A DNA stretch of 20,000 nucleotides from an uncultured virus (IMG/VR IMGVR_UViG_3300033165_000106) (lineage: Duplodnaviria > Heunggongvirae > Uroviricota > Caudoviricetes): the IMG/VR virus record IMGVR_UViG_3300033165_000106. One strand, given 5' to 3'. The position numbers were made by a program, and so were the translations under genes. Each line of letters opens with the position of its first letter. Within the stretch, counting starts at the first letter, position 1. Shown here piece by piece: positions 377-13,846 of this stretch. Under the pieces are notes generated by a model. It was not told where the DNA came from and searched no databases. It was given only the letters and a program-made list of their open reading frames with translations.

Positions 377-593
377 TCCTGCTCCCGAAATCTATAACCA
401 ACCGCCCCAATATGCTGTTCCTATAAGTGTGATGGAACGACTCGTGATCCTGCAGAAGGGGATTAATGCTGATATGTTTGATACGTATGTAAGTATCATT
501 TGTCAGGATTTTAGAACCAACCGACTGTATCATTTCTACTTTTCTATTCACGACATGGGCGCGAGTGTGTGGTATAAGGAGTGTTGGAATTGA
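366..593 (+). CDS. Hypothetical phage protein (75 aa)
   Basis: ATG-started ORF overlapping both neighbours in a tightly packed operon; no recognisable motif. Confidence 0.6.
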   Translation: MFADPAPEIYNQPPQYAVPISVMERLVILQKGINADMFDTYVSIICQDFRTNRLYHFYFSIHDMGASVWYKECWN

Positions 594-1450
594 TTATCTG
601 TTCGATGGGAGGGGGATTTTCTTCTACAGCATGGTTGCCGCGTGTTCTTTTAAGTCAGTATCCAAAAGAGCAGATACATTTTGTTACATCGGTGTTACCA
701 AACGAACATCCCTCTATGTGGCAGTTATATGATGCAGTTGAAAAGGGGCTAGACATTCAGGTTACGTATATAGCATATGATAAAGAAAATAAATGGCAAT
801 ACATAAATAAACAAGACAGGATAAATAAGGAAAAGTTATGGACACCCTTTGATATATTTGATGATGTAAAGATGTTAGGTAATAGTCGATTTGATCCTTG
901 CTCTCGTATTTTAAAACGAGAAACACTATTAAATTATATTAAGGATAATTTTAATTCGTGTACTTTAGCAGTGGGTATTCATGCGGATGAAATAGATCGT
1001 ATGTTATCGATTAAAACTAATTGGAGGAATAACGGATTTGATGTTGTGTTTCCTTTGATTGATTTGCCACGATACTCAGACACAGAACAACAGCAGAAAC
1101 TACAAGAGTGGTATGGGGTACAACTTGATCTTTACCAATTAGGCTTTGAGCACAATAATTGTCACGGTGCTTGTGTCAAGGCAGGACAAAGACAGTGGGC
1201 TTTGTTGTGGTATTACTATCCAGAGATTTATCAAGAGTGGGAAGATAGAGAAAACGAGTGGCGTTTAGAGAACGGGGATTATACTATATTGAAAAAGAAA
1301 ATAAAGGGAGAAACTGTTTATATAACCCTTAAAGAGTTTAGGGTGTTATTTCTTGAACCTGCCTTATCAGTGGACAAAGATACATTTTTAACTCGATACA
1401 TTAAAGAGTTATCTACTAATCCGCCATGCTATTTTTGTTCGGCAATATAA
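581..1450 (+). CDS. PAPS-reductase-like / adenine nucleotide alpha-hydrolase (PP-loop) family phage protein
   Basis: N-terminal PP-loop-like SMGGGFSS, then DPCSRILKRE, GIHADEIDR, FPLID, LYQLGFEHNNCHGACVKAG and a C-terminal CYFC. This motif order matches phage PAPS-reductase-like proteins. Confidence 0.75.
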   Translation: MLELIICSMGGGFSSTAWLPRVLLSQYPKEQIHFVTSVLPNEHPSMWQLYDAVEKGLDIQVTYIAYDKENKWQYINKQDRINKEKLWTPFDIFDDVKMLGNSRFDPCSRILKRETLLNYIKDNFNSCTLAVGIHADEIDRMLSIKTNWRNNGFDVVFPLIDLPRYSDTEQQQKLQEWYGVQLDLYQLGFEHNNCHGACVKAGQRQWALLWYYYPEIYQEWEDRENEWRLENGDYTILKKKIKGETVYITLKEFRVLFLEPALSVDKDTFLTRYIKELSTNPPCYFCSAI

Positions 1451-1452
1451 TC

Positions 1453-3186
1453 ATGAACATCAACATGCTGCCTTTATTTCCGTCTGTTTTGGGACTGGAT
1501 ATCGAAACAGATGGGCTGGATCGTTTTTCGGCTCAGATTACCGCTGTTGGTCTATCCGATGGAGAAGACACTTGGGTACTGACTGAGGGTTATGAGAGAT
1601 TGATTTCTTTACTTGAAGATCCGTCTGTTCTAAAAGTTATTCATAACGCGGACTTCGATCTCACCGTCCTGTGTTTCAGGATGAAAGTTGATCATAATAT
1701 CGAAGTCAAGCCTCAGAATATTTATGACACCCTTCTAGTCGAGAGAGTGCTGAATAACGGCCTATCCATTTCTAATAAACTAGAAGACGCTCTCGCTCGC
1801 AGATTAGGGATCTTAGTTGATAAATCTTTGCAGGAATCATTCACGGGAGGGGGGTTAAGTGAAGATCAACTGAGTTATATCGAGAACGACTGCAAACATT
1901 TAATTAAACTCCGCGACGAGCAGATGAGAGAAGTTAGTCTTTGCGGTATGGAGTGGGTGGTTGATCTCGAAAACAAAGACGTACTGGTAACTTTAGATAA
2001 GACTTTAACAGGTATCGGCATCGATCTCGAACAGTTTGAGGCTATTCGGGCGCAAATTCCCGCTGTGTTGGATCAGATTCTATCTCAGATTAAAGACATT
2101 TTAGGCGAAGACTTTGTTATCGAGGTCGAACGCACCAAAAAGGGCGAGAAATACACCGAAGAAATTCCCGTTAACGAGATTAAGTGGAATGCCTGGCAGC
2201 AGTTAAAGCCTGCTTTACATAAAGTTGGCGTCAAAGTTAATAACACGCAGCGCGGTACTTTAGAAGAGAGACAAGATCAGCATCCCCTTATTCCTCTGGT
2301 TTTGGAATATAAAACGTGGTTCAAGATGTTGGGCTGGCATTGGGACGAGTTTATTAATCCCATTACAGGTCGAATTCACCCTAACTGGAACCAATTAGGA
2401 CCAATTACTGCACGGTTTTCGTGTTCGGATCCGAACATGCAGCAGATTCCACGACCGGACGGTGTAAGACCGAATTTTAGATCGCTGTTTTTGCCGCTTC
2501 CCGGTCATAAGTTGTTAGTAGCCGACTGGTCACAACAGGAGCCTCGAATTCTAGCGCATGTCTCTCAGGACGAGAAGATGATCGCCGCTGCTAATTCAAG
2601 TGATATTTACTCTGCCTTCGGTAAAGACGTGTGGGGCGAAGAGATTACCAAAAAAGATCCGCGCCGCCAGATTATGAAGATCGGAGTGCTCGCCTCTTTC
2701 TATGGGGTATGGCACGTTAATCTCGCTTCGCGCATGGGGTTGTCTGAAAAGGAAGCCGAGAAACTACAAAAGAAAATTTTCAATACCTATCGTAAAGCCA
2801 AACAGTGGGGCGATTATCAAATTAAAGGAGTTATGCAACACGGTTATACGCAGTCGGTCATGGGGCGCAGGATTTACTTTGAGGACACCAGCCCGCGTAT
2901 GCAGTGGCGTCTCAAGAAAGAATCTCGAAACTACCCCATTCAAACAACCGGCGCGGACATGGCAAAGTTAGCCGAAGTTAAAATTTATGATATAATTCAG
3001 AAGAAGAATTACGATGCTCACTTTATCATTGGATTACACGACGAATTAGTTCTATCCTGCCACGAATCACAGGCTAAAGATTGTTTTGCCGATATGAAAC
3101 AGGCCATGATGGAAGCGGGGTCTGAGATCTGTCCGTCCGTACAGTTTCCGGTCGAAGGGGTGGTATCTGATAAATGGGAACATTAA
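1453..3186 (+). CDS. polA: DNA polymerase family A (3'-5' exonuclease plus polymerase, no 5'-3' exonuclease)
   Basis: ExoI LDIETDGL, ExoII HNADFDL, ExoIII YIENDC; TARFSCSDPNMQQIP; motif A ADWSQQEPRILAH; motif B RQIMKIGVLASFYG; NYPIQTTGAD; motif C LHDELV. ATG at 1453 follows the upstream stop at 1450. Confidence 0.95.
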   Translation: MNINMLPLFPSVLGLDIETDGLDRFSAQITAVGLSDGEDTWVLTEGYERLISLLEDPSVLKVIHNADFDLTVLCFRMKVDHNIEVKPQNIYDTLLVERVLNNGLSISNKLEDALARRLGILVDKSLQESFTGGGLSEDQLSYIENDCKHLIKLRDEQMREVSLCGMEWVVDLENKDVLVTLDKTLTGIGIDLEQFEAIRAQIPAVLDQILSQIKDILGEDFVIEVERTKKGEKYTEEIPVNEIKWNAWQQLKPALHKVGVKVNNTQRGTLEERQDQHPLIPLVLEYKTWFKMLGWHWDEFINPITGRIHPNWNQLGPITARFSCSDPNMQQIPRPDGVRPNFRSLFLPLPGHKLLVADWSQQEPRILAHVSQDEKMIAAANSSDIYSAFGKDVWGEEITKKDPRRQIMKIGVLASFYGVWHVNLASRMGLSEKEAEKLQKKIFNTYRKAKQWGDYQIKGVMQHGYTQSVMGRRIYFEDTSPRMQWRLKKESRNYPIQTTGADMAKLAEVKIYDIIQKKNYDAHFIIGLHDELVLSCHESQAKDCFADMKQAMMEAGSEICPSVQFPVEGVVSDKWEH

Positions 3187-3971
3187 CTGTTCAGTCTGAA
3201 AATCTGGGGCAACTCACGGGTGAGGCAATTGTCCACAAAGCCCTGGAAGAAGTCAAAAAATATCAAGCCCAAGAAGACGTAGATGAAAGATTTTCGCTGC
3301 TGAATAACGCCGCACAGATGAGCGATGCTCTCTCCGAAGGCTTTAAATTAGTGAGGGCAACAGCTTTGTGCATGATCGAGGATATCTGGGATCATCTTGG
3401 GTTTGAAGTGCGTAAAAGTTATGATTACCAGTTTCGTCTTTATGCGGAAAAGAGATGTCCTGATCTGACCTGGACCACCATTCAAAATCACATGCGAGCG
3501 GCAAGGACATTTGTATTGGGAAATGTCAAGCCGCCCGTTGTCGAAGGTAAAATTATTGAGTTTAACCCTCTGGAAACACCTATTTCTAAACTCGTTTTGG
3601 CGAGATCGGTAGCCGAATCAGGGCAGATCAACGACAACCCTAAAATCTGGGAGATACTGACCGATCCCGCTTCGGACGTATCCGAACTCAGGAAAGAGTT
3701 ATTCTCTGAGACAAGTAAAAAGGCAGGCATCGATCCTGAGATTCATTACGAAGTGGTTGGTCCCTATCTGATTGCCAAAAATAATGGAGATGAAGTTATT
3801 CTGGCGGAATTTAATTGGGAGCCTTATTACGATAAGAATGAAATTGCGGTTAGAGCGGTAGATCGGCTGATGAAGTTTCTCGGTGTAACGCTGGACGAAG
3901 AAATTATTTACCGTCAGATGAAAGAGAAATTTGATGCTCGCCAGAAAGCAGAAGAAAGGCGGATCTCGTGA
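3174..3971 (+). CDS. Hypothetical phage protein, possibly DNA-binding (HTH-like segment)
   Basis: 265-aa ORF coupled to its neighbours. FRLYAEKRCPDLTWTTIQNHMRAAR resembles the helical 'F..Y.E.....S..TA.NYMR.A' segments of phage DNA-binding proteins (weak). Confidence 0.6.
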   Translation: MGTLTVQSENLGQLTGEAIVHKALEEVKKYQAQEDVDERFSLLNNAAQMSDALSEGFKLVRATALCMIEDIWDHLGFEVRKSYDYQFRLYAEKRCPDLTWTTIQNHMRAARTFVLGNVKPPVVEGKIIEFNPLETPISKLVLARSVAESGQINDNPKIWEILTDPASDVSELRKELFSETSKKAGIDPEIHYEVVGPYLIAKNNGDEVILAEFNWEPYYDKNEIAVRAVDRLMKFLGVTLDEEIIYRQMKEKFDARQKAEERRIS

Positions 3972-4540
3972 AGCCTAAGACAAACAGAAAAGGCGACATT
4001 CATAAATCGCATAAGATGGATCAGTGTCAAACACCCCCCTATGCGCTGAATCCTTTGCGCCCTTTCCTGTCTCGGTTTTCTCGTGTGTGGGAGTCAGCGG
4101 CGGGTGAGGGGTATCTGGTCAGAGCGCTTGAAGGGGGGGGTTTTGAGGTTACAGGGACCGATCTCCTGACAGGCGATAATTTCTTCACGATGTCAATACC
4201 AAAGGGGTGTGAGGTTCAGATTACCAACCCACCCTTCTCCGCGAAATACGACTGGCTGAGACGAAGTTACGAATTAGAGTTGCCGTTTGCTCTGCTGCTT
4301 CCGATTGAGGTACTGGGTGCTGCCGCTGGACAGAATTTAATTCGGGAATATGGTGCAGAGATTATTTTTTACGATCAGAGGGTGGATTTTAAAATGCCCG
4401 AAAAGGGGTGGAACGGAGGCGGCGCGCAGTTTCCTACTATGTGGCTGACCTGGGGGTTGAATATCGGTCAACAGATGACGTTCGCTCGACTCAACAAACC
4501 CGGCAAAGCCGAGAGAGATAAACTCGATGAAAATACGTGA
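3968..4540 (+). CDS. Phage DNA amino-methyltransferase (probably N6-adenine)
   Basis: DQCQTPPYA, SAM-binding-like VWESAAGEG, NFF and catalytic ITNPPFS. The GTG start overlaps the upstream TGA. Confidence 0.8.
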   Translation: MKPKTNRKGDIHKSHKMDQCQTPPYALNPLRPFLSRFSRVWESAAGEGYLVRALEGGGFEVTGTDLLTGDNFFTMSIPKGCEVQITNPPFSAKYDWLRRSYELELPFALLLPIEVLGAAAGQNLIREYGAEIIFYDQRVDFKMPEKGWNGGGAQFPTMWLTWGLNIGQQMTFARLNKPGKAERDKLDENT

Positions 4541-4853
4541 TGTAAGCATGGTCGAAGAATTTTACGATGATTATGCCGGAGCACCTAATCATGTCAAGAA
4601 ACGGGTAGACAACAAAATTCGGATCATGGGGGAAGCCATTCAAACGAATGGTTGGTGTCATTTGCCTAATTCTTTCAATGCCCATAAGGTCGATAATGTA
4701 CCTGACCTGTGGATCGGCTATATCACGGTGGGCAATCAGGGCTGGCGGGTGCTGTTCGATGTAGACGTTAAAGGTACTCTACGATTTTTGCACTTGCTAT
4801 CTCACGACAACATGGACTTTTTGTTAATGCAACTTCAACGTTGGGAGACTTGA
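4527..4853 (+). CDS. RelE/ParE-superfamily toxin-like protein (putative mRNA interferase)
   Basis: 108 aa with a RelE-like pattern: FYDDY..AP..VKKRVDNKI helix, P.S.NAHKV, LW..YIT...WRVLF.V, and C-terminal LRFLHLLSHD (compare YafQ/HigB-type termini). Confidence 0.55.
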   Translation: MKIRDVSMVEEFYDDYAGAPNHVKKRVDNKIRIMGEAIQTNGWCHLPNSFNAHKVDNVPDLWIGYITVGNQGWRVLFDVDVKGTLRFLHLLSHDNMDFLLMQLQRWET

Positions 4854-4878
4854 CAGCGAGAATCTTTCCTGATATAAT
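4850..4878 (+). promoter_or_regulatory. Consensus sigma70 promoter for the recombinase and cassette operon
   Basis: TTGACA (4850-4855), 17-bp spacer, TATAAT (4873-4878), with extended -10 TG at 4870-4871. RBS AAGGAAGGA (4888-4896) precedes ATG 4901. Confidence 0.9.
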
Positions 4879-4900
4879 GATGTTAGAAAGGAAGGATGAG

Positions 4901-5758
4901 ATGCTAACCCTATACGAGCGGAATGTAGTCGAAGAGATCTTGAACGCTTTGCTGGAGAACTTATCTCCGCTGTCGCGTGAATCTTACCGCGCTTCGATTG
5001 TCAGTTTCTTGCGGTTTTCGATTGCACGTAAGCAGGCCAACCCGTTTCAATCGCCCGTATCAGTTTTCACGGCGTATAAGACGGAACTCAAGAAAGAATA
5101 CGCACCTGCAACCGTCAATAAGAAACTGTCGGCAGTGCGTGAGTTTTTTCGTTACGCCTACATTCACGAGTTGATCACGCACGAGATGTATGAAGGTATC
5201 CGTCTCGTCTCGAATGTTCGCCAGTCGGGTGAGACGTGGCGTGAGTGGTTGGGTGAAGACGAAGCTCATGCTCTATTGGAAAAAGCCGATTTGCTGAGAG
5301 ACAAGGTTGCAATTGTCTTGATGATGATCGTCGGTCTGCGCCGAGAAGAAGCGGTATCAGTTAAATGGGATCAACTCATCCAGCAAAACGGGGTGTGGCT
5401 GTTGGCGAATGTCATCGGTAAGGGCAATAAGATCCGCCACCCTGAAATTCCAGATCGGTATATCCCATTGTTTCAGTTGTGGCGCGAAGACAACTACAAG
5501 GATTATATTCTGGTGTCGATTGACCGGCACGGTAATCTGGGAAATAGGCTGAACAAGACCTCACTCAATAAGATTATGAAAAAGTACGATGTACGACCGC
5601 ACGATCTTCGCCGCACTTCGGCTAAACTGGCAGATGAAGGTGGTGCTCCTATTCGCGCCATTCAGAAGCAGTTAGGACACTCGTCCGTCAAAACAACTGA
5701 GATTTATATGGAGCCTATGCGTGTAGGTGAGAGCGCGGTACACTACATTAAAATATGA
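4901..5758 (+). CDS. Tyrosine recombinase / integrase (XerC/D-like, with core-binding domain)
   Basis: N-terminal LSPLSRESY...APATVNKKLSAVREFFRY; catalytic residues R (GLRREE), K (GKGNK), HxxR (HDLRR), H (LGHSS) and Y (TTEIY). The start at 4901 is chosen from the promoter and RBS. Confidence 0.93.
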   Translation: MLTLYERNVVEEILNALLENLSPLSRESYRASIVSFLRFSIARKQANPFQSPVSVFTAYKTELKKEYAPATVNKKLSAVREFFRYAYIHELITHEMYEGIRLVSNVRQSGETWREWLGEDEAHALLEKADLLRDKVAIVLMMIVGLRREEAVSVKWDQLIQQNGVWLLANVIGKGNKIRHPEIPDRYIPLFQLWREDNYKDYILVSIDRHGNLGNRLNKTSLNKIMKKYDVRPHDLRRTSAKLADEGGAPIRAIQKQLGHSSVKTTEIYMEPMRVGESAVHYIKI

Positions 5759-5792
5759 GGCGCGCCAAGCGCCCTACTCCGAGAGGTGTGAG
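5759..5792 (+). repeat. Intergenic cassette repeat, copy 1
   Basis: GGCGCGCCAAGCGCCCTACTCCGAGAGGTGTGAG begins at the base after the recombinase stop and ends at the base before ATG 5793. Confidence 0.9.
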
Positions 5793-6221
5793 ATGGACGA
5801 TTTATCCGATGGACTGTACGACATACTGTACGACGCCGCCAGGAATGGACACTATATCTCCCCAGCCAACGGCCCGGAGCGTCCGGAATTAAAAACGGTG
5901 CTTGCTTTGGGGCTGTTAACTCCGGGATTGAAGCACGTCTACTGGCATCGTTATGAACTGACAGCGAAGGGTGTTGCCCAACTGAAGCAGAAGAAGGTGC
6001 GCGCCATCCAGGTAGACTTTCCAGGCCAGCCGCCGCTGATACTGCGCAGCCAAGATGAGTTCGAGAGGGACGTTCTGGCGGGCATCGTCAACGATACGTT
6101 GGATTGCCAGATGGACGAACGCAATGGGTTTTCCGACGATGGCACCGAACTGTTCCGTGTGTCCGTCAAAGTCATTGACCTGTATACGCTGGCGACCTTG
6201 CCCGATTGGGAGCCAGTATAG
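5793..6221 (+). CDS. Cassette ORF 1, hypothetical (142 aa) with possible N-terminal winged helix
   Basis: ATG follows GAGAGG within repeat 1. YELTAKGVAQLK resembles a wHTH wing motif. Confidence 0.7.
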   Translation: MDDLSDGLYDILYDAARNGHYISPANGPERPELKTVLALGLLTPGLKHVYWHRYELTAKGVAQLKQKKVRAIQVDFPGQPPLILRSQDEFERDVLAGIVNDTLDCQMDERNGFSDDGTELFRVSVKVIDLYTLATLPDWEPV

Positions 6222-6223
6222 CA

Positions 6224-6257
6224 GGCGCGCACAGCGCCCTACCCTGGGAGGTGTGAG
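6224..6257 (+). repeat. Intergenic cassette repeat, copy 2
   Basis: GGCGCGCACAGCGCCCTACCCTGGGAGGTGTGAG, 29/34 identical to copy 1, between TAG 6219-6221 and ATG 6260. Confidence 0.9.
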
Positions 6258-6259
6258 AC

Positions 6260-6469
6260 ATGAACAAACAACAAGCAAAACAACATATCTGTAGCATCGC
6301 GGCGGATATTGTAAGCTGCTTGGATGAACCGCTACTTTTTGCAGATACCGGAGAACCTCATACCGATGAGGACACTGCCCGCTTACGACAAGCGCGTGAT
6401 GAGCTGGTGCGCGAACTCAAACGACGCAGTAAGCCAGTGCAAAAGAAGACCCACGAAGACGAAGACTAG
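6260..6469 (+). CDS. Cassette ORF 2, hypothetical (69 aa)
   Basis: ATG follows GGGAGG of repeat 2; its stop abuts repeat 3. Confidence 0.75.
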   Translation: MNKQQAKQHICSIAADIVSCLDEPLLFADTGEPHTDEDTARLRQARDELVRELKRRSKPVQKKTHEDED

Positions 6470-6501
6470 CGGGCGCACAGCGCCCTACCCCGGAGGAGGG
6501 G
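6470..6501 (+). repeat. Intergenic cassette repeat, copy 3
   Basis: CGGGCGCACAGCGCCCTACCCCGGAGGAGGGG shares the 18-nt core GCGCACAGCGCCCTACCC with copy 2 and contains the perfect dyad GGGCGC-ACA-GCGCCC. Confidence 0.85.
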
Positions 6502-6756
6502 ATGATGGAACCATACGTGTATTTCAACATTGACGGCCACATAAAAAACGCCGGCCCAGGCTGGGTTGGCGGACGCTGGCAAGTCGGAAAAACTGAACCG
6601 CTCCCACTCGCCGTCATGCTGGCTAAGCTGACCAAAATCGTGCTGGACCACTACATGCAGTTTGAGGACACCGACACGCTCAACAACAATCTGGACAAGT
6701 TCCGACAGGTTATCAACGACGTGCGCATTATTGAGGAGGCCCCCGACCATGACTGA
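6502..6756 (+). CDS. Cassette ORF 3, hypothetical (84 aa)
   Basis: ATG follows GGAGGAGG of repeat 3. Confidence 0.75.
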   Translation: MMEPYVYFNIDGHIKNAGPGWVGGRWQVGKTEPLPLAVMLAKLTKIVLDHYMQFEDTDTLNNNLDKFRQVINDVRIIEEAPDHD

Positions 6757-7099
6757 CCAACTGCTGCCCCCCGACGACTTGCGCGCAATCGAGGCGCGGG
6801 CGGAGAACTGGCAAGACCTGAACCTGGATTTTTTAGCCTTTCAAGACATCCCCGCGCTGCTGGCGCACATCCGCGCCCAGGACGCGGCGCTGGCGCGGCT
6901 GCGGGACGCGCTGGCGGCGCTTGTGGACGCTGAGGCGCACGGCACACCTGGTGGGTATATCGGCGTAGACACAGGCGGAGAGACACATGACCGCCACTGC
7001 ACTTACTGCTATACATTCTGGCGCATGGGCGAACCCGAACGCCACGACGACGACTGCCCGGTAGCCGTCGCCCGCGCGCTGCTGGACGGGAGCGAATGA
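6749..7099 (+). CDS. Hypothetical phage protein (Ead/Ea22-like N-terminus, C-terminal CxxC...HxxxC putative Zn site)
   Basis: GAGGAGG RBS precedes ATG 6749. DLRAIEARAE...DIPALLAHIR is typical of small phage accessory proteins; HCTYC...HDDDCP. Very GC-rich. Confidence 0.7.
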   Translation: MTDQLLPPDDLRAIEARAENWQDLNLDFLAFQDIPALLAHIRAQDAALARLRDALAALVDAEAHGTPGGYIGVDTGGETHDRHCTYCYTFWRMGEPERHDDDCPVAVARALLDGSE

Positions 7100-7383
7100 T
7101 GCTTAAAAGACGTGTAGAATTTATTGGTTTGCAAAATGGAGAAACTGTCTCTGGGCACATCTACGCTCGTAATTGGGACGAAGTAACTGATTATTTAAAC
7201 TCAGAGAATGTAGAAAAGGCGCTCATGGGCTATGCGGGATTTGTGCCTGAGAATCTTATTCTGCCCCACTCTATTGTAATGTTAATTGTCAATAAGTTTG
7301 GTAGGGATGCAGGTCAAATGCTTGAAGAGACAAACAACTGGTTTTTAGGGTTATTGGAGAAAACAGTTAATGAGGACTTTTAA
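7096..7383 (+). CDS. Hypothetical phage protein (95 aa)
   Basis: ATGA overlap with the upstream stop; part of a coupled ORF chain. Confidence 0.65.
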   Translation: MMLKRRVEFIGLQNGETVSGHIYARNWDEVTDYLNSENVEKALMGYAGFVPENLILPHSIVMLIVNKFGRDAGQMLEETNNWFLGLLEKTVNEDF

Positions 7384-7651
7384 GATAGACAGGCTGACAG
7401 ATGAGCAAGTCGAATCTCTTCTGCAGGAATATAAAGAGAGATACGAAAAAGAGGTTGACAATATTCTCGAAACACGCTCTCCTAACGATTATGTGTTGGA
7501 TGAGATTTATCAGATCATTTGCGTGTTATCTGAGATTCAAGATACACGAAATGCACTCAGAAAAATTGCTTATCGGTTTTATTTGACAGATCCAGTTGAT
7601 ACGGTTACTATTTTACGAGATACTGCTGTAGAGGCTTTAGAAGATGAATGA
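7370..7651 (+). CDS. Hypothetical phage protein (93 aa)
   Basis: GGAG upstream; overlaps both neighbours. Confidence 0.65.
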   Translation: MRTFKIDRLTDEQVESLLQEYKERYEKEVDNILETRSPNDYVLDEIYQIICVLSEIQDTRNALRKIAYRFYLTDPVDTVTILRDTAVEALEDE

Positions 7652-7868
7652 TATTGATGATATAGCGTATCTTGTTTATGATTTGCTAAGTTGTGATGAG
7701 AGCTTGAGTTGGACTATAGGTGATTTATATTGGGCATTAAGTGCAACAGAACCTGACAAGGATATTACACTGAATGAAGTTAGATATGCTGTATGGTATT
7801 TGATTGACGAAGTAAAAGCCGATTTAACATCTGACAGAAAGGTTATATTTCACAATGATAACGTTTAA
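7644..7868 (+). CDS. Hypothetical acidic protein (74 aa), possibly winged-helix-like
   Basis: GAGG upstream. WTIGDLY...ITLNEVRYAVWYLIDE helical pattern (weak). Confidence 0.6.
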   Translation: MNDIDDIAYLVYDLLSCDESLSWTIGDLYWALSATEPDKDITLNEVRYAVWYLIDEVKADLTSDRKVIFHNDNV

Positions 7869-7995
7869 GTGGGGCCAATTCACGATTAGGGTGAACATTT
7901 TACTTCTGTTGTGTGTTCCACTTATGTTATTTGGTCAGTATGAGATAGCAATCTGGTTAGTGTTGTGCGGTATATACGGAGTGTTGGCGCAATGA
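7855..7995 (+). CDS. Small hydrophobic membrane protein (46 aa), absent from the supplied ORF track
   Basis: Manual translation gives MITFKWGQFTIRVNILLLLCVPLMLFGQYEIAIWLVLCGIYGVLAQ*. AGAAAGG lies upstream, the ORF fills the gap, and it ends in an ATGA overlap with the next gene. Confidence 0.65.
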   Translation: MITFKWGQFTIRVNILLLLCVPLMLFGQYEIAIWLVLCGIYGVLAQ

Positions 7996-8357
7996 AACCT
8001 AAGCGAGGCGTGTTTTCTTTGCGGGGTTGGTTGTACTGGCAATTGCGCGTGTTGCCAGATAAAGATGATGTTAAAGATGTGTTTAAGTCACTTTTAGATT
8101 TTTTGGATGAGATGACATCTGATACAGAATCGAGTATAGGAATTAGTTCTATACTGTTTGGTATTTGTTTTATGGTTGTTTCTCTAACCCTGATAGTTGT
8201 TGGAGAAGTATTATCTATATCAGTAGATGATTACGCGGGATATATAATTTTACTCTCTCTTCTGTTATCTTTTTTAAGTATTTCTCTCATGCACTATCTT
8301 TTGTATGTATATAAAGCAGAACTCAAGGAGAAAAATGATGAAACCCAATCGCGGTGA
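7992..8357 (+). CDS. Membrane protein with two predicted TM segments
   Basis: ATG 7992 overlaps the upstream TGA. Hydrophobic stretches ISSILFGICFMVVSLTLIVVG and YIILLSLLLSFLSISLMHYLLYV. Confidence 0.7.
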   Translation: MKPKRGVFSLRGWLYWQLRVLPDKDDVKDVFKSLLDFLDEMTSDTESSIGISSILFGICFMVVSLTLIVVGEVLSISVDDYAGYIILLSLLLSFLSISLMHYLLYVYKAELKEKNDETQSR

Positions 8358-8562
8358 TGTGGTCTATATCGTAGATCGAAACGGAAAGAAGACTCACAAT
8401 AAAACCCATGTAATGCACGTGTGGGAAAATTACGACGACTGCTGGCATATTCATGATGAGTTTGTCGTGCCCATGAAAGTTAGGTGGGACGGCGAAAGTT
8501 GGATACAGTGTATAGAAAGGCCAAGCGAGACAAAAACGAAAAGCGACTCGTGGATTTTTTAA
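8335..8562 (+). CDS. Hypothetical phage protein (SH3-like beta pattern)
   Basis: AAGGAG at 8325-8330 precedes ATG 8335; starts KPNRGDVVYIVD. Confidence 0.65.
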   Translation: MMKPNRGDVVYIVDRNGKKTHNKTHVMHVWENYDDCWHIHDEFVVPMKVRWDGESWIQCIERPSETKTKSDSWIF

Positions 8563-8843
8563 GGCGATGCGGAGCGTCAATAGCCTATCTGGACGATCCT
8601 GGTGTACCGGATCTTCTGGTGGGCTATTGTGGTTTAAATCTGTTATTAGAAGTCAAAGGGCAGAAAGGTAGACTTACCAGTGCTCAAAAATCTTTTATCC
8701 AGAATTGGAGCGGCACCGTTTATGTGGTCAGAACCATCCGAGATGTCAAACTTGCCCTTAGATCCGAGCGCCTACGGCATAACGGATGTTTACACCTGGC
8801 GGCAGTATCTCAAAAAGGAACTGCTCAAGAAGCGGGGGTATAA
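8508..8843 (+). CDS. VRR-NUC-type PD-(D/E)XK nuclease (putative Holliday junction resolvase)
   Basis: KRDKNE..LVDFLR..GA, GVPDLLVGY, LLEVK, GRLTSAQ..F...W.G..YVVRT. Start uncertain (GTG 8508 or 8484). Confidence 0.85.
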   Translation: MYRKAKRDKNEKRLVDFLRRCGASIAYLDDPGVPDLLVGYCGLNLLLEVKGQKGRLTSAQKSFIQNWSGTVYVVRTIRDVKLALRSERLRHNGCLHLAAVSQKGTAQEAGV

Positions 8844-9108
8844 GTCAGATTGGTCGGGCGAGAAACTTAAAGGGTGTCACATGCACGAGGGTATTCTGAC
8901 TCGCGCTAATGTCCCTAAAAGTATTTCGTGGCATATTCTGATCTACCACGAATATAACTGCTTTCTTCTTTCGGTAGACGAGCATACACCCGCTCCACCG
9001 TCAAGGGAATGGTGTATTGAGAAGTCCTACGAACTCTATGGCAGAGACAAAGTAAGATTCTGGTACTATCACTTACCTTTCAAGGTATTTCCGTTTCAAC
9101 TCCCTTGA
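8743..9108 (+). CDS. Degenerate HNH/NinG-like protein
   Basis: KRGYKSDWSG....CHMHE...YNCFLLSVDEH follows HNH spacing (R..C..CG..H.HH..N...LC..CH) but with the Zn-ligand cysteines replaced. Start uncertain. Confidence 0.5.
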   Translation: MSNLPLDPSAYGITDVYTWRQYLKKELLKKRGYKSDWSGEKLKGCHMHEGILTRANVPKSISWHILIYHEYNCFLLSVDEHTPAPPSREWCIEKSYELYGRDKVRFWYYHLPFKVFPFQLP

Positions 9109-9133
9109 CAAACATTAAATCCCGTGTTACACT
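9105..9133 (+). promoter_or_regulatory. sigma70 promoter (with RBS AAGGAG at 9141-9146) originally driving the gene at 10832
   Basis: TTGACA (9105-9110), 17-bp spacer, TACACT (9128-9133), with extended -10 TG at 9125-9126. Confidence 0.75.
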
Positions 9134-10351
9134 CTACTCAAAGGAGAGCGTACGTGACGACTCTCCCCGCTTTAGCGGGGAGCTTCCCAGAGCACGCTCG
9201 CCGCAACCGGCCACGTTACGCTCTGGCGGCCCCGTCCGGGCCGAGTTGACCGCTAAAAACAAGATATTCCGAGCGGCGTTCACGTCGCGGTCAGCCATGT
9301 AGCCGCAGTGAGGACAACGGTGTACACGAACGCTCAAATCCTTTTCGACCATCGCCCCACAGGCCGAGCACACCTGCGATGTGTAGGCGGGGTTCACAGT
9401 CACCACTTCAGTACCAGCACTCTCAGCCTTGTACTGAAGCAGTTGTCGGAACTCCGCCAGCCCCGCATCGTATGCGCTCAGGGCCAGGCGGCGGTTGGCG
9501 GTCAGAAAAGTGAGCGTGAGGTCTTCGAGGGCAATCAGCCCGTAGGCATCGACAAGCTGGCGGGTGAGCTTGTGCCAGAAATCGCGACGCTGGTTGGCGA
9601 CGCGTTCGTGCAGCCGGGCGACCTGCGCGGCGGCTTCCCGCCAGCCACGGCTGCCCTTCCTGCGCCGCGCCATGCGCCGCTGAGCGACACGCAGTTTCGC
9701 CAGCGAACGGCGCAGCCAGCGCGGGTTATCGACCGTGACGCCATCCGACAGCGCCAGCAGGCTATGCAATCCCATGTCGATGCCAACCGCCGGGCCGGTG
9801 TGTGGGACCACAATTGGCTCAGGCAGGTCGAGCATCAAGCACACGTACCACTTGCGGTTGCGACGCTTCAAGATGACGTGCTTGATCGTCGCGTCGTTAG
9901 GAACCGAACGGTGATACTTGACTTTGACTTCACCCACGTTCTGAACGTAGAACAGCGCCCGTTCGCGGTCGTCAAAGCGCAGCTTACAGCCATCGCCGTA
10001 GCGGTATTCCAGGCTGTTGAAGTGGTGACGCCCCTTGAAGCGCGGAAAGCCCGCCTTCTCGCCCGCTTCCAGGCGGCGGAAGAACGCGCGAAAGGCTTTG
10101 TCCAGGCGGCGCAGCATCTGCTGTACGCTGGTCGCGTTCAACTGGCCGAGCGTGTCGGGATTGGCGCGGCGCTGGTCACGAAAGTGCGCACACTGCTGGG
10201 TGTAGCTCACGCCCTTGCCAGTCTCTTTGTAGACGGTGATGCGCTGTTCCAGCGCGGCATTGTAGAGCAGGCGAGCTTGCCACAGCAGGAAGTCGAGCGC
10301 CTTCTCTTGCGCGTTCGTGGGATACAGCCGGTACTTGTAGGTGCGGATCAT
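9134..10351 (-). CDS. tnpB: TnpB RNA-guided endonuclease (IS605 OrfB)
   Basis: N-terminal RTYKYRLYPT HTH, FPRFK, RuvC-I GIDMG, RuvC-II IALEDL, Zn finger CSACG...CPHCG, RuvC-III DRDVNAARNI. All three catalytic acidic residues are intact. Confidence 0.96.
   Translation of the reverse strand: MIRTYKYRLYPTNAQEKALDFLLWQARLLYNAALEQRITVYKETGKGVSYTQQCAHFRDQRRANPDTLGQLNATSVQQMLRRLDKAFRAFFRRLEAGEKAGFPRFKGRHHFNSLEYRYGDGCKLRFDDRERALFYVQNVGEVKVKYHRSVPNDATIKHVILKRRNRKWYVCLMLDLPEPIVVPHTGPAVGIDMGLHSLLALSDGVTVDNPRWLRRSLAKLRVAQRRMARRRKGSRGWREAAAQVARLHERVANQRRDFWHKLTRQLVDAYGLIALEDLTLTFLTANRRLALSAYDAGLAEFRQLLQYKAESAGTEVVTVNPAYTSQVCSACGAMVEKDLSVRVHRCPHCGYMADRDVNAARNILFLAVNSARTGPPERNVAGCGERALGSSPLKRGESSRTLSFE
9138..9330 (-). 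ncRNA. Predicted TnpB omegaRNA (reRNA) overlapping the tnpB 3' end and RE, with guide from the flank
   Basis: Inferred from known IS605 biology (e.g. ISDra2): the scaffold ends at the RE (9154) and the guide is the adjacent flank GTACGCTCTCCTTTGA. The 5' boundary is a guess. Confidence 0.5.
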
Positions 10352-10354
10352 GCG

Positions 10355-10744
10355 CTATTGCCCCCTTTGTTCATCAATGTACCGCTTGATTATCTCTGCG
10401 CTGACGTGCCCGGCTGTTCCAACATAGTACGAACGTGTCCAAAGCGAAGGCAAGCGACTCCTGAGATGCGGAAATTCTTTTCGCAGTTGATAGCTGGTCT
10501 CACCTTTCAGTCGGTACATGATCTGGCTAATCGCCAAAGTTGGCGGGAATGAAGCGAACAGGTGCACGTGGTCTGGCATCACAACCAGATCAAGCACCTC
10601 ACCACCAAGCTCCCGGACGTAATCGGGCAGCAACTTGGTAAGGCGCACGCCAACAGCACCATCCAAAACTGGACGCCGATATTTCGGACACCAGATGAGG
10701 TGGTAGTTGATGTTGTAGGTTGCGTGTCGAGTTTGTTTGCTCAT
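10355..10744 (-). CDS. tnpA: IS200/IS605 HUH (Y1) transposase TnpA
   Basis: YHLIWCPKYRR, HUH motif MPDHVHLF, KG.TS, LWTRSYYVGTAG, catalytic YIDEQ. Confidence 0.96.
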   Translation of the reverse strand: MSKQTRHATYNINYHLIWCPKYRRPVLDGAVGVRLTKLLPDYVRELGGEVLDLVVMPDHVHLFASFPPTLAISQIMYRLKGETSYQLRKEFPHLRSRLPSLWTRSYYVGTAGHVSAEIIKRYIDEQRGQ

Positions 10745-10753
10745 AGCAATTTA

Positions 10754-10782
10754 ATTATATCACGGGAGAGGAAAGGAGGCAA
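10754..10782 (-). promoter_or_regulatory. IS-internal sigma70 promoter for tnpA-tnpB (near-leaderless transcript)
   Basis: On the - strand: TTGCCT (10782-10777), 17 bp, TATAAT (10759-10754) with extended TG. Only 9 nt separate the -10 from the tnpA ATG and there is no SD. Confidence 0.7.
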
Positions 10783-10831
10783 GCGCCATTTCCCACCGAG
10801 CTAAAGCCCGGTGTCCCTCGGCGCAATTTCT

Positions 10832-11065
10832 ATGGGATTCTGGAATTTTCCTCGAAGCTCCAAGTTAGACATCTTAGACGACCGCAGACACGTTCACATT
10901 TACCTGTCTGCTTTTCGTGATCCAGAAACTCAGATTGAAACAGTAGACCGTGAATCGTATTGTCTTTACGGGTTGGACGAGGCTTTGTTAGCTGAGCCGC
11001 GTCACCCCTTCTTGAAGTTGGCTTTTGCTATTTATTGTATGGTTTATGCTTGCTTTAAAGTTTAA
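10832..11065 (+). CDS. Hypothetical phage protein (77 aa) separated from its promoter and RBS by the IS
   Basis: ATG 10832 abuts the IS left end. Removing 9154-10831 gives AAGGAG-agcgtac-ATG. Confidence 0.7.
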   Translation: MGFWNFPRSSKLDILDDRRHVHIYLSAFRDPETQIETVDRESYCLYGLDEALLAEPRHPFLKLAFAIYCMVYACFKV

Positions 11066-11457
11066 GCCATACCCGCTATACCGTACCAGTCAAATCCGTC
11101 GCAGATGATCAGCATTTTATTGAACTGTGTTGTGGCTGTTTTAGTGAGAGATCCGTTGATTAATTCTGTTCCGTCTCCGTCAACTGTAACAGTGTTTGCT
11201 GATGCGTCTATTTTGACGAATCCCAATATACGACCCGGATCGTTGGCGGCGGCGGGGAGATTAATAGTAATGTTTCCGCCAGATGCGTCGGCTAAAATAA
11301 TCGTTTCTCGTTCGGGAGAGTAAGGCGAATCGGCGGCAGTGATAGATACAAATCTCCAATAAACCAAAGGCTCTTGCGCCTCCAGATTATTGACGCGACT
11401 ATCTAGATCGCGGAATTGAGAAACAAAATCTCGATAAACTCTACGCAGATCTTCCAT
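11062..11457 (-). CDS. Small tail fibre / tail-tip accessory protein
   Basis: N-terminal coiled coil (LDSRVNNLEAQE), then IILADASGGNITINLPAA...FVKIDASANTVTVDG.GTELING, a beta-rich domain common in phage fibre proteins. Last gene of the tail operon. Confidence 0.7.
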   Translation of the reverse strand: MEDLRRVYRDFVSQFRDLDSRVNNLEAQEPLVYWRFVSITAADSPYSPERETIILADASGGNITINLPAAANDPGRILGFVKIDASANTVTVDGDGTELINGSLTKTATTQFNKMLIICDGFDWYGIAGMA

Positions 11458-11458
11458 A

Positions 11459-13846
11459 TTAACCGCCGCAAATTCCTATGAATTCGTTATTGGTGTCTGA
11501 GTAAAAGTCAGATAAGTTTCCGGCTTTTGATTGAATAGTTGCGCCAAAGTCGTTTGAATAGGCTATTGAGTATTGAGTACCCCATAAATAAAGCGATGTA
11601 GTTGTATCTCCCGCAATAGCAACCCTGCGATAGCCTGTATTTGGTCCCTGTCTTAGTGTCCACGTAGATCCTGCATCTTCGCTGGTGTAAAAGTACCAGC
11701 GATCTATTGTCCAACTACCTTGACCACAAAAGGCCATGTAATTTCTATTTTGAAAAGAGCTTACAATTCCCCAACGAGTTCTCCACGGAGAAACACGGCG
11801 CGTTCCTATGATGCCGCCCGGCTGTGGGGAGATTTCTCCGCTTGATCCGTCAGCCAGTGTCCGATATAAGCGGGTATCATCTGCGTTGTCGGTACTGGTT
11901 ACGTTGTAATAGGCTATATTCTCATTGTCGTTGTCGTGATAAGGAATGTGCAGATCCCAACCGCCATGTTTAGACAAAAGCATCAGGGGCGACTGTGGTC
12001 CGTGAGTTGTAATTTTAGACCACGTTGCTCCATAATCTGTACTTTTATACCCTTTACCGGCCTTTGTGCCTGTTTCGCCTCCAGTAATAATAACTAACCC
12101 CGCTGTTTTAGATGACACATAGCACCCACATATAGGATAAACATCCGCAGTACCTGCAACTTCAACTTCGGTCCACGTTGTTCCGCTGTTGGTTGTATAT
12201 GCCACACGTGTAGATCTAGATGGAAGCGGACTACCCCAAACCAATACAACATGACCCTGAATACCAAAACTAGCATCTGCCATTGATCTATTTTGGTGTG
12301 ATCCATATGTCGGATCAGTGTAGGGGGGTGCAAAAGTGTGTTCGCTCAGTGTATGTTGTTCGGTGAATATAGGAATGCCAAAAATATCAGTAACGCGGTA
12401 GATTTTTGTGGTAGTAAATAGCCACCCATTAACCGCCGTTCCGCCCCCTACATATCCCGGCGAAAAGGCGTCCACTACAAAATTAGCGGGAAGTCCGTCA
12501 ACTCCCATGTCTGTTTGATTCCATGTAGGATTTGCGGCAGTAAAATTAGATGTTCGATATAAATATCCGTCTGTTCTAAAGGCGGCAATTTTTTGTGTTC
12601 CACTCAGTAACGCCCACGGACCAACTTCGACAACTGGCTCGAACGGATATGGATCTTCATAGTCGATAGTCCATTCTGCCAGATATTCGACCATTGCATC
12701 CGATAAACCGTCCATTTCTACGTCAATGCGCTCGATGAAGGTTGTATCTTTGGACGTATTGACTGTGACGTGAATTTCTTTAATTTCTTTTGATTCGAGA
12801 TGGTCAAAATATTTAGCCGTGACGATATCGCCCAGATTAAAGTCGCGCATCCAACGAGTAGATTCGTTCTGTCTTAAATTAAAAGTGACACTTTTCTTGG
12901 CGGCATTTTTTTCTAGATAAGAGCGACCGACTGTGAGCATCTCAGCATTTGATTCAGCACCGCGACTGTCAATGTAAGCCTCTTTTCGAATGCGGGGTGA
13001 CTCAGCCAAAGCCGTGAGATTGGAAAGCTCCAATAACTTACGCTTGATACCTACCCCCGTACCGGCGACGTAAACAACGGTCTTCTGTTCCGAATAGTTT
13101 TTGGATAAAATAGGGATGTCCATGTTCTTTTTCATGAAATCAAAGAGCATGGGATCGCCCTTGTCGGGATTGGTGGAGTTGATACGTCGATCTAATCCCC
13201 AAATTTCGCGGGTGTATAGTGCAAAGGTGACGGGCGGATCGTCCGCTCCGACAATGCCAAATTTTACGTTTCCATCTTCAGCCAGCGTCTGACAGGCAGT
13301 TAAAAGGTTGGTATAACGGGGTGAGTAAGTAACCGTATTGCCCCCATCGGGAGCGGCGGCAATCGCAAAACCGGGCATAGCGCGGTCGGCGTCGGGTACC
13401 GATCCCGTGAGCATATTAAAAGCCACGTACTCTTTGATGGCTGTGCCTGCGGCAGCAGTAACTTCATGCACTTCCCAGTCCGCCACGGGGGGAATAATGA
13501 CTCTACGATTCAGCCATTCAGTATAACCCTGACCGTAAAGAGTTAAAATAATATCGCCGTTTTTTCTCGCCTGATCAACAGTTGTCTGGTGAAAGCCTTC
13601 CCAGACTTTATCTTTATCCAATGTCACAGGATCTGTTCTGTAAATTAAATAAAACCAGTCTGGACCGATTGATCTCAAAGTTTCGAGACGGGGATCATCA
13701 TAGGAAAGATCGTAACGAATGGTATGGTTCCACGGCGCGTTAAGCCGTTGCCAGTATTCCAGGACCGACCAGCCCTGTAGAATAGTGACGAAATTTGAAT
13801 CTTCATCGTAGAGACGAACTTCATACAAATCTGAGGGATAAGTCAT
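11459..13846 (-). CDS. Tail-tip hub protein (siphovirus ReqiPepy6 Gp37-like) fused to a C-terminal Asp-box/BNR beta-propeller
   Basis: Position after Dit. VYVAGTGVGIKR...RKEAYIDSR...YLEKN...DFNLGDIVT is typical of Gp37-like hubs. The C-terminal half has Asp-boxes YTTNSGTTW, KSTDYGATW, TSEDAGSTW and YSNDFGATI. Confidence 0.8.
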   Translation of the reverse strand: MTYPSDLYEVRLYDEDSNFVTILQGWSVLEYWQRLNAPWNHTIRYDLSYDDPRLETLRSIGPDWFYLIYRTDPVTLDKDKVWEGFHQTTVDQARKNGDIILTLYGQGYTEWLNRRVIIPPVADWEVHEVTAAAGTAIKEYVAFNMLTGSVPDADRAMPGFAIAAAPDGGNTVTYSPRYTNLLTACQTLAEDGNVKFGIVGADDPPVTFALYTREIWGLDRRINSTNPDKGDPMLFDFMKKNMDIPILSKNYSEQKTVVYVAGTGVGIKRKLLELSNLTALAESPRIRKEAYIDSRGAESNAEMLTVGRSYLEKNAAKKSVTFNLRQNESTRWMRDFNLGDIVTAKYFDHLESKEIKEIHVTVNTSKDTTFIERIDVEMDGLSDAMVEYLAEWTIDYEDPYPFEPVVEVGPWALLSGTQKIAAFRTDGYLYRTSNFTAANPTWNQTDMGVDGLPANFVVDAFSPGYVGGGTAVNGWLFTTTKIYRVTDIFGIPIFTEQHTLSEHTFAPPYTDPTYGSHQNRSMADASFGIQGHVVLVWGSPLPSRSTRVAYTTNSGTTWTEVEVAGTADVYPICGCYVSSKTAGLVIITGGETGTKAGKGYKSTDYGATWSKITTHGPQSPLMLLSKHGGWDLHIPYHDNDNENIAYYNVTSTDNADDTRLYRTLADGSSGEISPQPGGIIGTRRVSPWRTRWGIVSSFQNRNYMAFCGQGSWTIDRWYFYTSEDAGSTWTLRQGPNTGYRRVAIAGDTTTSLYLWGTQYSIAYSNDFGATIQSKAGNLSDFYSDTNNEFIGICGG

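Follow-up and report, generated by a model that had tools for sequence, protein, structure and literature searches.

A hairpin linker ahead of exchangeable small genes behind a tyrosine recombinase gene in an uncultured siphovirus-type phage

Introduction

Does a phage tyrosine recombinase shuffle the small genes that lie behind it, or are these genes exchanged by other means at a leader sequence that they share? The question is raised by a stretch of 20,000 nucleotides from an uncultured virus (IMG/VR record IMGVR_UViG_3300033165_000106), part of a siphovirus-type phage genome and referred to below as the window. Within it, a tyrosine recombinase gene is followed on the same strand by a row of small open reading frames (ORFs), three of which are preceded by copies of one short repeat. 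The original prediction for this locus was a cassette capture or shuffling system served by the recombinase; a start-associated motif that promotes homologous gene swapping was given as the alternative. Here we describe the repeat as a linker that runs from one stop codon to the next start codon, and show by comparison with related phages that gene content changes at it. The evidence favours the alternative: the linker is probably a portable, RNA-level expression element that doubles as a site of homologous exchange.

Results

A linker that fills the gap between genes

The core sequence GCGCNNNGCGCCCTAC occurs three times in the window, at 5762, 6227 and 6473 on the + strand. When up to two mismatches were allowed, shuffled sequences contained 0.32 matches on average, and none of 200 shuffles reached three. 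A repeat search gave the same three linker copies, spaced by 465 and 246 nt, and a profile search of the window gave no copy beyond these. The gaps concerned are 32–38 nt long and each is occupied entirely by its linker, from stop codon to next ATG. The parts follow in the order stop codon, 0–2 nt, GC hairpin, pyrimidine tract (CCCTACYCY), purine-rich Shine–Dalgarno (SD) site and ATG, ~35–45 nt in total (Table 1). For linker 1 the stop is the recombinase's own TGA (5756–5758), while in linkers 2 and 3 it is a TAG inside the repeat.

Most of what had been predicted for the repeat was borne out. Pattern and repeat searches and the shuffles agree with copies at 5759, 6224 and 6470, the first right after the recombinase stop codon; the units of 465 and 246 bp were reproduced, and the ORFs in them, said to be unrelated, fall into families without a blastp match to one another. 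The gene map and the profile search likewise uphold the statement that genes elsewhere on this arm overlap (neighbours on the + arm outside the array mostly do so by a few bases) and that the window holds no further repeat. The conserved repeat itself therefore stands, but its earlier consensus of ~28 nt was too short, as the unit occupies the entire stop-to-ATG interval.

The ORFs behind the linkers resemble little that is known. In a Pfam scan of 17 cassette ORFs none reached the cut-off, the sole match with E < 0.01 being a CSL zinc ribbon (E = 0.00057, 20 bits against a cut-off of 29.2). The four cassette ORFs of the window matched no PHROG family, and Atlas look-alikes of the 142-aa ORF all scored below 0.9, with TM (template modelling) values below 0.5. 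The variable block as a whole (5759–7099, + strand) is a GC-rich island, with genes of 50–66% GC compared with 33–48% for the flanking genes.

Gene content switches at the linkers

The linker pattern was searched for in viral contigs, in metagenome contigs and in the genomes of 185,579 species, one per species. An 18-nt version matched 95 stretches of viral contigs, of which those in records G001 and G002 alone look like linkers, the rest being without an SD/ATG context. A longer version matched seven loci in viral contigs, five of them not linkers and the true ones again only in G001 and G002. In metagenome contigs six of 11 loci were true linkers (L124, L125, L126, L128, L129 and L130) and five were not. 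The search of one genome per species gave four loci, one of them true (L140); among the other three is L141, where the match precedes a host oxidoreductase gene. L140 is a 5.5-kb contig homologous to this phage and filed in a metagenome-assembled genome (MAG) titled as a Bathyarchaeia archaeon; this placement is probably a binning artefact and not evidence of the host.

Among the low-GC relatives of the window, the flanks of the array are 85–97% identical and the arrays differ. In the window, three linkers precede ORFs of 142, 69 and 84 aa, followed after a second kind of junction (J, described below) by one of 116 aa; L129 has the same units and spacing. G001, the nearest record, is a complete virus genome of 81,155 bp with direct terminal repeats, to which most of the window aligns at 90–96% identity; its linkers precede ORFs A76, B68 and C94, with D113 and E130 after J. 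L126 has a linker before a 121-aa ORF and another before C94, then a 97-aa ORF after J, and L140 has one linker before an 83-aa ORF and a 178-aa ORF after J. The four close relatives thus carry 1, 2, 3 or 3 linker-preceded ORFs of differing families. The check suggested with the original prediction, whether in relatives the repeat follows the recombinase stop codon with different ORF content, came out positive in the low-GC lineage, where the number or family of ORFs differs among the four variants.

The change in gene content falls exactly at the linkers when the sequences are compared. Homology between the window and G001 continues through linker 1 to position 5795 and resumes at 7356. In the fragment L130, orfA lies behind a linker that follows another ORF, while in G001 it is the first ORF after the recombinase gene; a rare CCCTGYCC variant of the linker sits before orfA in both contexts. 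The hairpin thus appears to travel with the downstream ORF as its leader. In the full set of sequences, the ORFs behind the 15 linkers fall into 12 families with no mutual blastp match at E ≤ 1e-3, and in this comparison the linker is the sole sequence common to otherwise unrelated genes across several phage lineages. The ratio of nonsynonymous to synonymous substitution (dN/dS) is 0.145 for orfA and 0.083 for orfC, indicating that the cassettes are real genes. Since different families and numbers of ORFs lie between the same linkers with near-identical flanks, cassette-like turnover is confirmed as genuine, as judged from the sequence comparison.

Joints were also mapped in the contigs of four sequencing runs; contigs cannot reveal rare circles or hybrid junctions. 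They contained no joint that skips exactly one unit. The five joints listed all lie between 6734 and 7787, in the mosaic gene described below and downstream of it. Loose ends of contigs at 5758, 5788, 5795, 6234 and 6510 reflect linkers joined to other ORFs in the same communities, and at a loose end in X8 the letters match the L130 arrangement. The first low-GC gene past the block (7096–7383, MMLKRR...) has counterparts of 62–63% aa identity in L126 and L140 and is absent in G001, so that the variable region reaches ~7356 in that comparison.

A second junction type and a mosaic gene family

The last linker-preceded ORF of the window ends in a different boundary sequence, J (Table 1), which carries the tail and stop codon of the upstream ORF together with the SD site and ATG of the next, so that stop and start overlap. 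The encoded EAPDHD terminus was found on seven ORFs of six families in the sequences collected.

The ORF that begins in J belongs to a family of proteins starting MTD, for which there was no Pfam family match. Its members in the window, L125, L128, L130, L140 and G001 share conserved N-terminal, middle (LLAHIRAQDAELARLR) and C-terminal (ALLDG) motifs around variable inserts. They are chimeras of one another, and two to four tandem paralogues are present in G002 and L125. In a 191-aa ORF of L128, for example, the first 95 residues are 90% identical to G001 orfE and residues 72–152 are 90% identical to the 116-aa ORF of the window. A conserved DNA stretch within the latter (window 6845–6914) recurs three times in G002. 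Conserved stretches inside genes thus appear to act as mosaic joints as well. The presence of such joints both at J and within genes fits general homologous recombination at any shared stretch rather than the action of one site-specific enzyme.

Predicted RNA fold of the linker

The hairpin is 15–17 nt long, with a stem of 5–6 bp and usually a G-N-N-N-A pentaloop; the counts that follow rest on 14 aligned linkers. The canonical GC hairpin was present in the minimum-energy RNA fold of 12 of the 14, and a second small hairpin, in which CCCY pairs with RGGG of the SD site, likewise formed in 12. The stem arms are complementary in every linker. The loop varies in sequence and in length (3, 4 or 5 nt), and a shorter loop goes with a longer stem. 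Constant complementarity of the arms with a variable loop points to a folded strand rather than a double-stranded operator. Linkers that precede the same ORF are conserved more strongly than the third codon positions beside them (39/41 vs 72/95 positions, and 28/34 vs 56/77).

Other roles for the sequence were considered. No T-run follows the stems on the + strand. On the − strand, hairpin 1 followed by a T-rich run (window 5758–5774) scores as a terminator-like site; this is limited to linker 1, where the AT-rich end of the recombinase gene supplies the T-run. TACCCT in the linker was considered as an actinobacterial-type −10 element and rejected because its last T is C in several copies. No Rfam family matched the linker, with one chance match at E = 4.3.

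Promoter and recombinase

The promoter ahead of the recombinase gene and the whole array matches the sigma-70 consensus at all 12 positions with a 17-nt spacer. No terminator-like site was found on the + strand between 4878 and 7100, and a promoter scan gave no sigma-70-like site within any of the three linkers, the nearest being a 9/12 site at 5727–5754, inside the recombinase gene. With no promoter inside the linker, the cassette genes depend on the one upstream promoter.

The recombinase is Xer-like. Its R, K, HxxR, H and Y positions align with those of XerD and of a XerC-like structure, and R148, K174, H234, R237, H260 and Y269 are invariant in all seven family members; the homologues P0002–P0007 are 76–38% identical to it. 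The best NCBIfam models were XerA, XerC and XerD, and as all scored under their equivalog cut-offs the protein is a relative of these recombinases and not an orthologue. The integron-integrase model TIGR02249 gave 46.3 bits against a cut-off of 265, matching only residues 225–280 (the C-terminal 56), and NF011946 gave 23.6 bits against 435; alignment with IntI4 was likewise confined to residues 230–280. A profile of the recombinase family found in viral contigs G001 and one 30%-identical match (L144, cut by the contig end and uninformative), and nothing else. G001 has a single PF00589 gene.

The earlier statements about this part of the locus hold. The perfect sigma70 promoter upstream of the recombinase was recovered, and the catalytic residues said to be complete are all in place in the structural alignments and across the family. 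The promoter scan agrees with the cassettes being promoterless and downstream of a strong promoter, while models and sequence agree that the recombinase has no IntI-specific character, is co-oriented with the array, and is followed by repeats without RYYYAAC/GTTRRRY ends.

Linkers in high-GC phages

Linkers also occur in another phage lineage, with two copies in L125 and one each in L128, G002 and L124. L125 and L128 have 62–65% GC, and the low-GC phage 45%. The gene ahead of the linker in the high-GC loci encodes either an HNH endonuclease or a C5 methyltransferase. Six-frame tblastn and a family hidden Markov model gave no recombinase homologue at E ≤ 1 in L125, L128, G002, L124 or L130, with L126 (1e-110) and L140 (1e-108) as positive controls; the search of high-GC loci covered 9–12 kb per record, the records behind L125 and L128 being ~57 kb long. 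A scan of selected ORFs of the high-GC loci and a PF00589 search of G002 also found no recombinase. The supposed tie of the repeat to the recombinase therefore does not hold in the 9–12 kb of these contigs.

The occurrence of a GC-rich block in a low-GC backbone, together with the existence of linker-bearing high-GC phages, suggests that the block was imported from a high-GC phage gene pool. Apart from the MTD family, only a lysin and a few unrelated ORFs are common to the loci of both lineages. The lysin is an SH3-domain endolysin-like protein (G001 1600–3108) with 59–63% aa identity to those of L125 (8265–9407) and L128 (2819–4354). Sharing of this protein implies that low-GC and high-GC phages may meet in one host or infect related hosts. 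In L125, two HNH endonuclease genes (4468–4956 and 7503–8255), 51% identical over their C-terminal 73 aa, bracket the linker/J cassette region.

Discussion

We consider it probable that the linker is a portable RNA-level expression element that doubles as a site of homologous exchange. The proposed steps are as follows. A polycistronic mRNA would be transcribed from the promoter at 4850, and on it the linker would give each promoterless small gene a standard signal for translation start or mRNA stability; it may also bind an RNA-binding protein. General homologous recombination or gene conversion between linkers would add, delete and replace genes, and the exchange would include co-infecting high-GC phages. 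Junction J and the conserved intragenic stretches would serve as further crossover points. The recombinase gene would be the conserved left neighbour of a hyperplastic block and not its engine. The part of the original prediction that survives is thus that the ORFs are exchangeable, as relatives differ in them; that the recombinase drives the exchange is not favoured, given its Xer-like character, the short hairpin and the occurrence of linkers in high-GC loci without a recombinase homologue in the 9–12 kb searched. The alternative then offered, a start-associated motif that promotes homologous gene swapping, is the one that the evidence favours.

Several observations weigh against this reading. 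In all four low-GC variants linker 1 lies directly against the stop codon of the recombinase gene, and a linker profile of G001 returned only the three copies at the recombinase (E ≤ 2.4e-6), the next match (E = 0.15) lying inside a coding region. Such confinement behind the recombinase would be expected of a recombinase-linked array; the four variants are, however, of common descent and do not count as independent cases. A recombinase gene could also lie elsewhere on the ~57-kb records behind L125 and L128. No recombination intermediate was observed, and no annealing protein of the Rad52, RecT or Erf type was recognised among the 78 of 102 G001 ORFs that were scanned. As for the RNA, z-scores of the folds against shuffles are modest (−1.28, +0.13, −2.55, −1.85, −2.26 and −1.83), the stem never varies and so gives no covariation support, and RNA status is on record for none of the 24 runs that contain part of the stretch.

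In the integron-like explanation, the adjacent Xer-like recombinase would recognise the linkers, as folded single strands or short palindromes, and would capture, excise and reorder cassettes for expression from the strong promoter. The start of the first linker one base past the recombinase stop in 4/4 variants fits this, as do the absence of linkers elsewhere in the complete 81-kb G001, the promoterless, co-oriented cassettes downstream of a perfect promoter, the variation of cassette number and order among near-identical phages, and the intact catalytic residues. We nevertheless find it improbable. The recombinase failed the integron-integrase models (46 vs 265 bits and 23.6 vs 435), and GTTRRRY/RYYYAAC ends are absent from the linker sequence. 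A stem of 5–6 bp is too short for two recombinase monomers as in attC, dif and lox sites. Linkers are present in high-GC loci without a recombinase homologue in the 9–12 kb examined, and the unrelated junction J and the intragenic joints are equally mosaic; the lack of a joint skipping exactly one unit counts weakly in the same direction, as it comes from contigs only. The fuller version of this explanation, a phage-borne gene-capture platform independent of IntI and attC, in which the Xer-like recombinase would use the hairpin linkers and high-GC linkers would form a pool of cassette donors, seems to us more improbable still.

Somewhat better placed, but still unlikely, is the possibility that the hairpin serves mainly as an operator to which a specific RNA-binding protein would bind, either of the boxB/N-like kind or a translational repressor, with coordinated control of the cassettes as its role and gene swapping as a by-product. 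The hairpin adjoins the SD site, the linker shows stronger conservation than third codon positions nearby, and 11 of the 14 linkers have a pentaloop of the form G...A (GCCAA, GCACA, GACAA or GCAAA) on a 5-bp GC stem (6 in G3). GACAA is also the loop of the P22 boxB hairpin, described as bound by the N peptide in a GNRA-like fold (PMC12550061). However, no candidate binding protein emerged; the loci of the two lineages share just the MTD family, the lysin and the few unrelated ORFs. Three of the 14 linkers have 3- or 4-nt loops and one has AACGA; there is also no Rfam match. Moreover, nut sites occur once or twice per operon and not ahead of each gene, as the linker does. A double-stranded DNA operator, at which a dimeric repressor would block read-through between genes as at the stoperators of Cluster A mycobacteriophages, a comparison raised in PMC3203893, would account for inverted half-sites GGCGC/GCGCC in short intergenic gaps and one orientation throughout. 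It is very improbable, because the half-sites are spaced by 3, 4 or 5 nt with complementarity kept and with the stem longer where the loop is shorter, which argues for a hairpin and not for a dimer site of fixed geometry; in addition, conservation is asymmetric, continuing past the hairpin across the pyrimidine tract and SD site as far as the ATG. The last explanation concerns CTAC, which comes after the hairpin in 12 of the 14 linkers. Repetitive extragenic palindromic (REP) sequences consist of GTAG plus a palindrome, which is what the linker presents on its other strand, so the hairpin might be a REP-like host repeat imported with GC-rich DNA or a target of a Y1 transposase (IS200/RAYT-type), and an insertion sequence (IS) of the IS200/IS605 type does lie 2.4 kb downstream in the window. 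Yet the end hairpins of this IS are unrelated to the linker, G001 and L140 keep linkers without it, and REP stems are far longer than that of the linker. Among one genome each of 185,579 species, the full pattern had one true match of four, the phage-homologous contig L140. We hold this to be the least credible of the explanations.

Of the systems already described, the closest are the promoter-early stem-loop (PeSL) of T4-type phages and the start-associated sequence and its extended form (SAS/ESAS) of Cluster K mycobacteriophages. PeSLs consist of a stop codon, promoter, stem-loop, SD site and start codon before ORFans in hyperplastic regions (PMC2839356, Arbiol et al. 2010), and PeSL cassettes are described as mediating shuffling by homologous recombination (PMC2839356; PMC4122927, Comeau et al. 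2014). The linker too is an intergenic unit with the upstream stop codon at one end, the SD site and start of the next gene at the other, and a GC stem-loop in between; both precede small ORFans in a hyperplastic region, and close relatives differ by indels or replacements bounded by the units. Unlike the PeSL, the linker has no internal sigma-70 promoter and no T-run terminator, is GC-rich and ~40 nt long, and is present in three copies in one block, compared with ~50 across several regions. It belongs to a siphovirus-type phage from sludge metagenomes and is common to lineages of 45% and 62–65% GC, and no mini-circles showed in the contigs of four runs.

SAS/ESAS is described as a conserved SD-bearing motif with a variable-spacer inverted repeat before genes of different families, with a 13-bp SAS consensus, GGGATAGGAGCCC, within 3–7 bp of the start codon (PMC3203893, Pope et al. 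2011). From that account, the two systems have in common a conserved SD motif with a variable-spacer inverted repeat immediately ahead of it, genes of different families, one orientation, a location on the non-structural arm and an upstream stop that is sometimes inside the motif; the role of SAS/ESAS is thought to be translational. They differ in that GGGATAGGAGCCC is absent from the linkers, that the arms of the linker are 5–6 bp compared with 17 bp, and that there are three copies in one block compared with ~15–20 per genome as reported there. For the linker, a tie to gene turnover is documented through near-identical phages.

The likeness to integrons lies in a tyrosine recombinase gene beside a promoterless ORF array, structured repeats, one promoter and content that varies among relatives. 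In integrons, however, intI is divergent, with attI and Pc at the junction, whereas here the recombinase gene is co-oriented with the array and has the promoter upstream of it. Each ORF has a hairpin of 15–17 nt on its 5′ side as a leader, without a GTT/AAC core, instead of an attC site of 57–141 bp on its 3′ side; the recombinase is Xer-like and failed the IntI models, and linkers occur also without a recombinase homologue in the 9–12 kb searched of each high-GC record. Three integron features are accordingly not found here: an integrase of the IntI family, attC sites, and a divergent intI with attI and Pc. With P22 boxB (PDB 1A4T) the linker shares a 5-bp GC stem and a GNRA-like pentaloop, and the loop is GACAA in two G001 linkers (PMC12550061 for boxB), but there is one linker per gene, set directly against the SD site. 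Neither boxA nor an N-like protein was noticed in general protein scans, no search being aimed at either, and we treat the similarity to boxB as a resemblance only.

A known style of phage gene shuffling fits the linker locus better than an integron-like capture machine does, and the present evidence does not point to a novel recombination machine. So far, most documented cases of small accessory genes shuffled through linkers are from T4-type myoviruses, and start-associated motifs are known from one actinophage cluster, without known function. The present locus is a compact and well-delimited case in an uncultured siphovirus-type phage, with two kinds of precise gene-boundary sequence and twelve unrelated ORF families behind one leader. 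The linker is common to lineages whose base composition differs greatly, and these lineages seem to trade genes at it. This makes the locus a good natural system in which to study how phages add foreign genes to an operon with the expression signals already supplied, and the linker could supply a short, portable translation-start element.

Genomic context

Table 1. Coordinates of features in the window
Feature	Position	Strand	Description
Family A DNA polymerase	1426–3186	+	gene on the + arm of the window
DNA methyltransferase-like protein	3968–4540	+
Sigma-70-type promoter	4850–4878	+	TTGACA-17-TATAAT with upstream TG (extended)
Xer-like tyrosine recombinase	4901–5758	+	285 aa; Pfam Phage_integrase, E = 5.5e-22, plus N-terminal SAM-like domain
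Linker 1	5759–5792	+	begins 1 base past recombinase TGA; hairpin GGCGC-GCCAA-GCGCC (5759–5773), tract CCTACTCC, SD GAGAGG, ATG 5793
Cassette ORF	5793–6221	+	142 aa, 55% GC, without known family
Linker 2	6219–6259	+	TAG 6219–6221, CA, hairpin GGCGC-GCACA-GCGCC (6224–6238), CCTACCCTG, SD GGGAGG, ATG 6260
Cassette ORF	6260–6469	+	69 aa, without known family
Linker 3	6467–6501	+	TAG 6467–6469, C, hairpin GGGCGC-ACA-GCGCCC (6471–6485), TACCCC, SD GGAGGAGGGG, ATG 6502
Cassette ORF	6502–6756	+	84 aa, ends ...EAPDHD*, tail from junction J
Junction J	6734–6757	+	GAGGAGGCCCCCGACCATGACTGA; encodes upstream EAPDHD and stop, and SD and ATG (MTD...) of next ORF
MTD-family ORF	6749–7099	+	116 aa, 66% GC; mosaic paralogue family common to high-GC phages
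IS200/IS605 element	9154–10831		52–66% GC in 400-nt windows
TnpB of the IS	9134–10351	−
TnpA of the IS	10355–10744	−
Tape measure protein	14715–18839	−	1374 aa, among tail genes

The phage has no cultured relative, as blastn of GenBank phages with window 4500–9000 gave no match and tblastn with the recombinase gave 124 records, identity being just 25–27% among the 12 matches listed. The 24 runs that contain part of the stretch come from 22 studies, and those carrying the phage are labelled sludge metagenome. A tRNA search found none.

The IS200/IS605 element is inserted after ...GAGCGTAC, between the SD site and the ATG (10832) of the next + strand gene, and is missing from G001 and L140. The best named relatives of its TnpB are 84–85% identical and come from Anaerolineae MAGs, which serves as a lead only to a candidate host in the Anaerolineae/Chloroflexota.

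G001 contains a polysaccharide-biosynthesis cluster at 3660–12264 and elsewhere (loci L134–L137), with epimerases, a formyltransferase and several glycosyltransferases, one of 920 aa. It also encodes a Fic/DOC protein, a radical SAM protein, a pyrimidine-dimer glycosylase and several DNA methyltransferases. A PAPS-reductase-like gene of the window (581–1450, 36% GC; window 594–1466) is missing in G001, where its flanks lie ~10 bp apart, and a distant homologue of this gene adjoins the linker in the high-GC locus L128.

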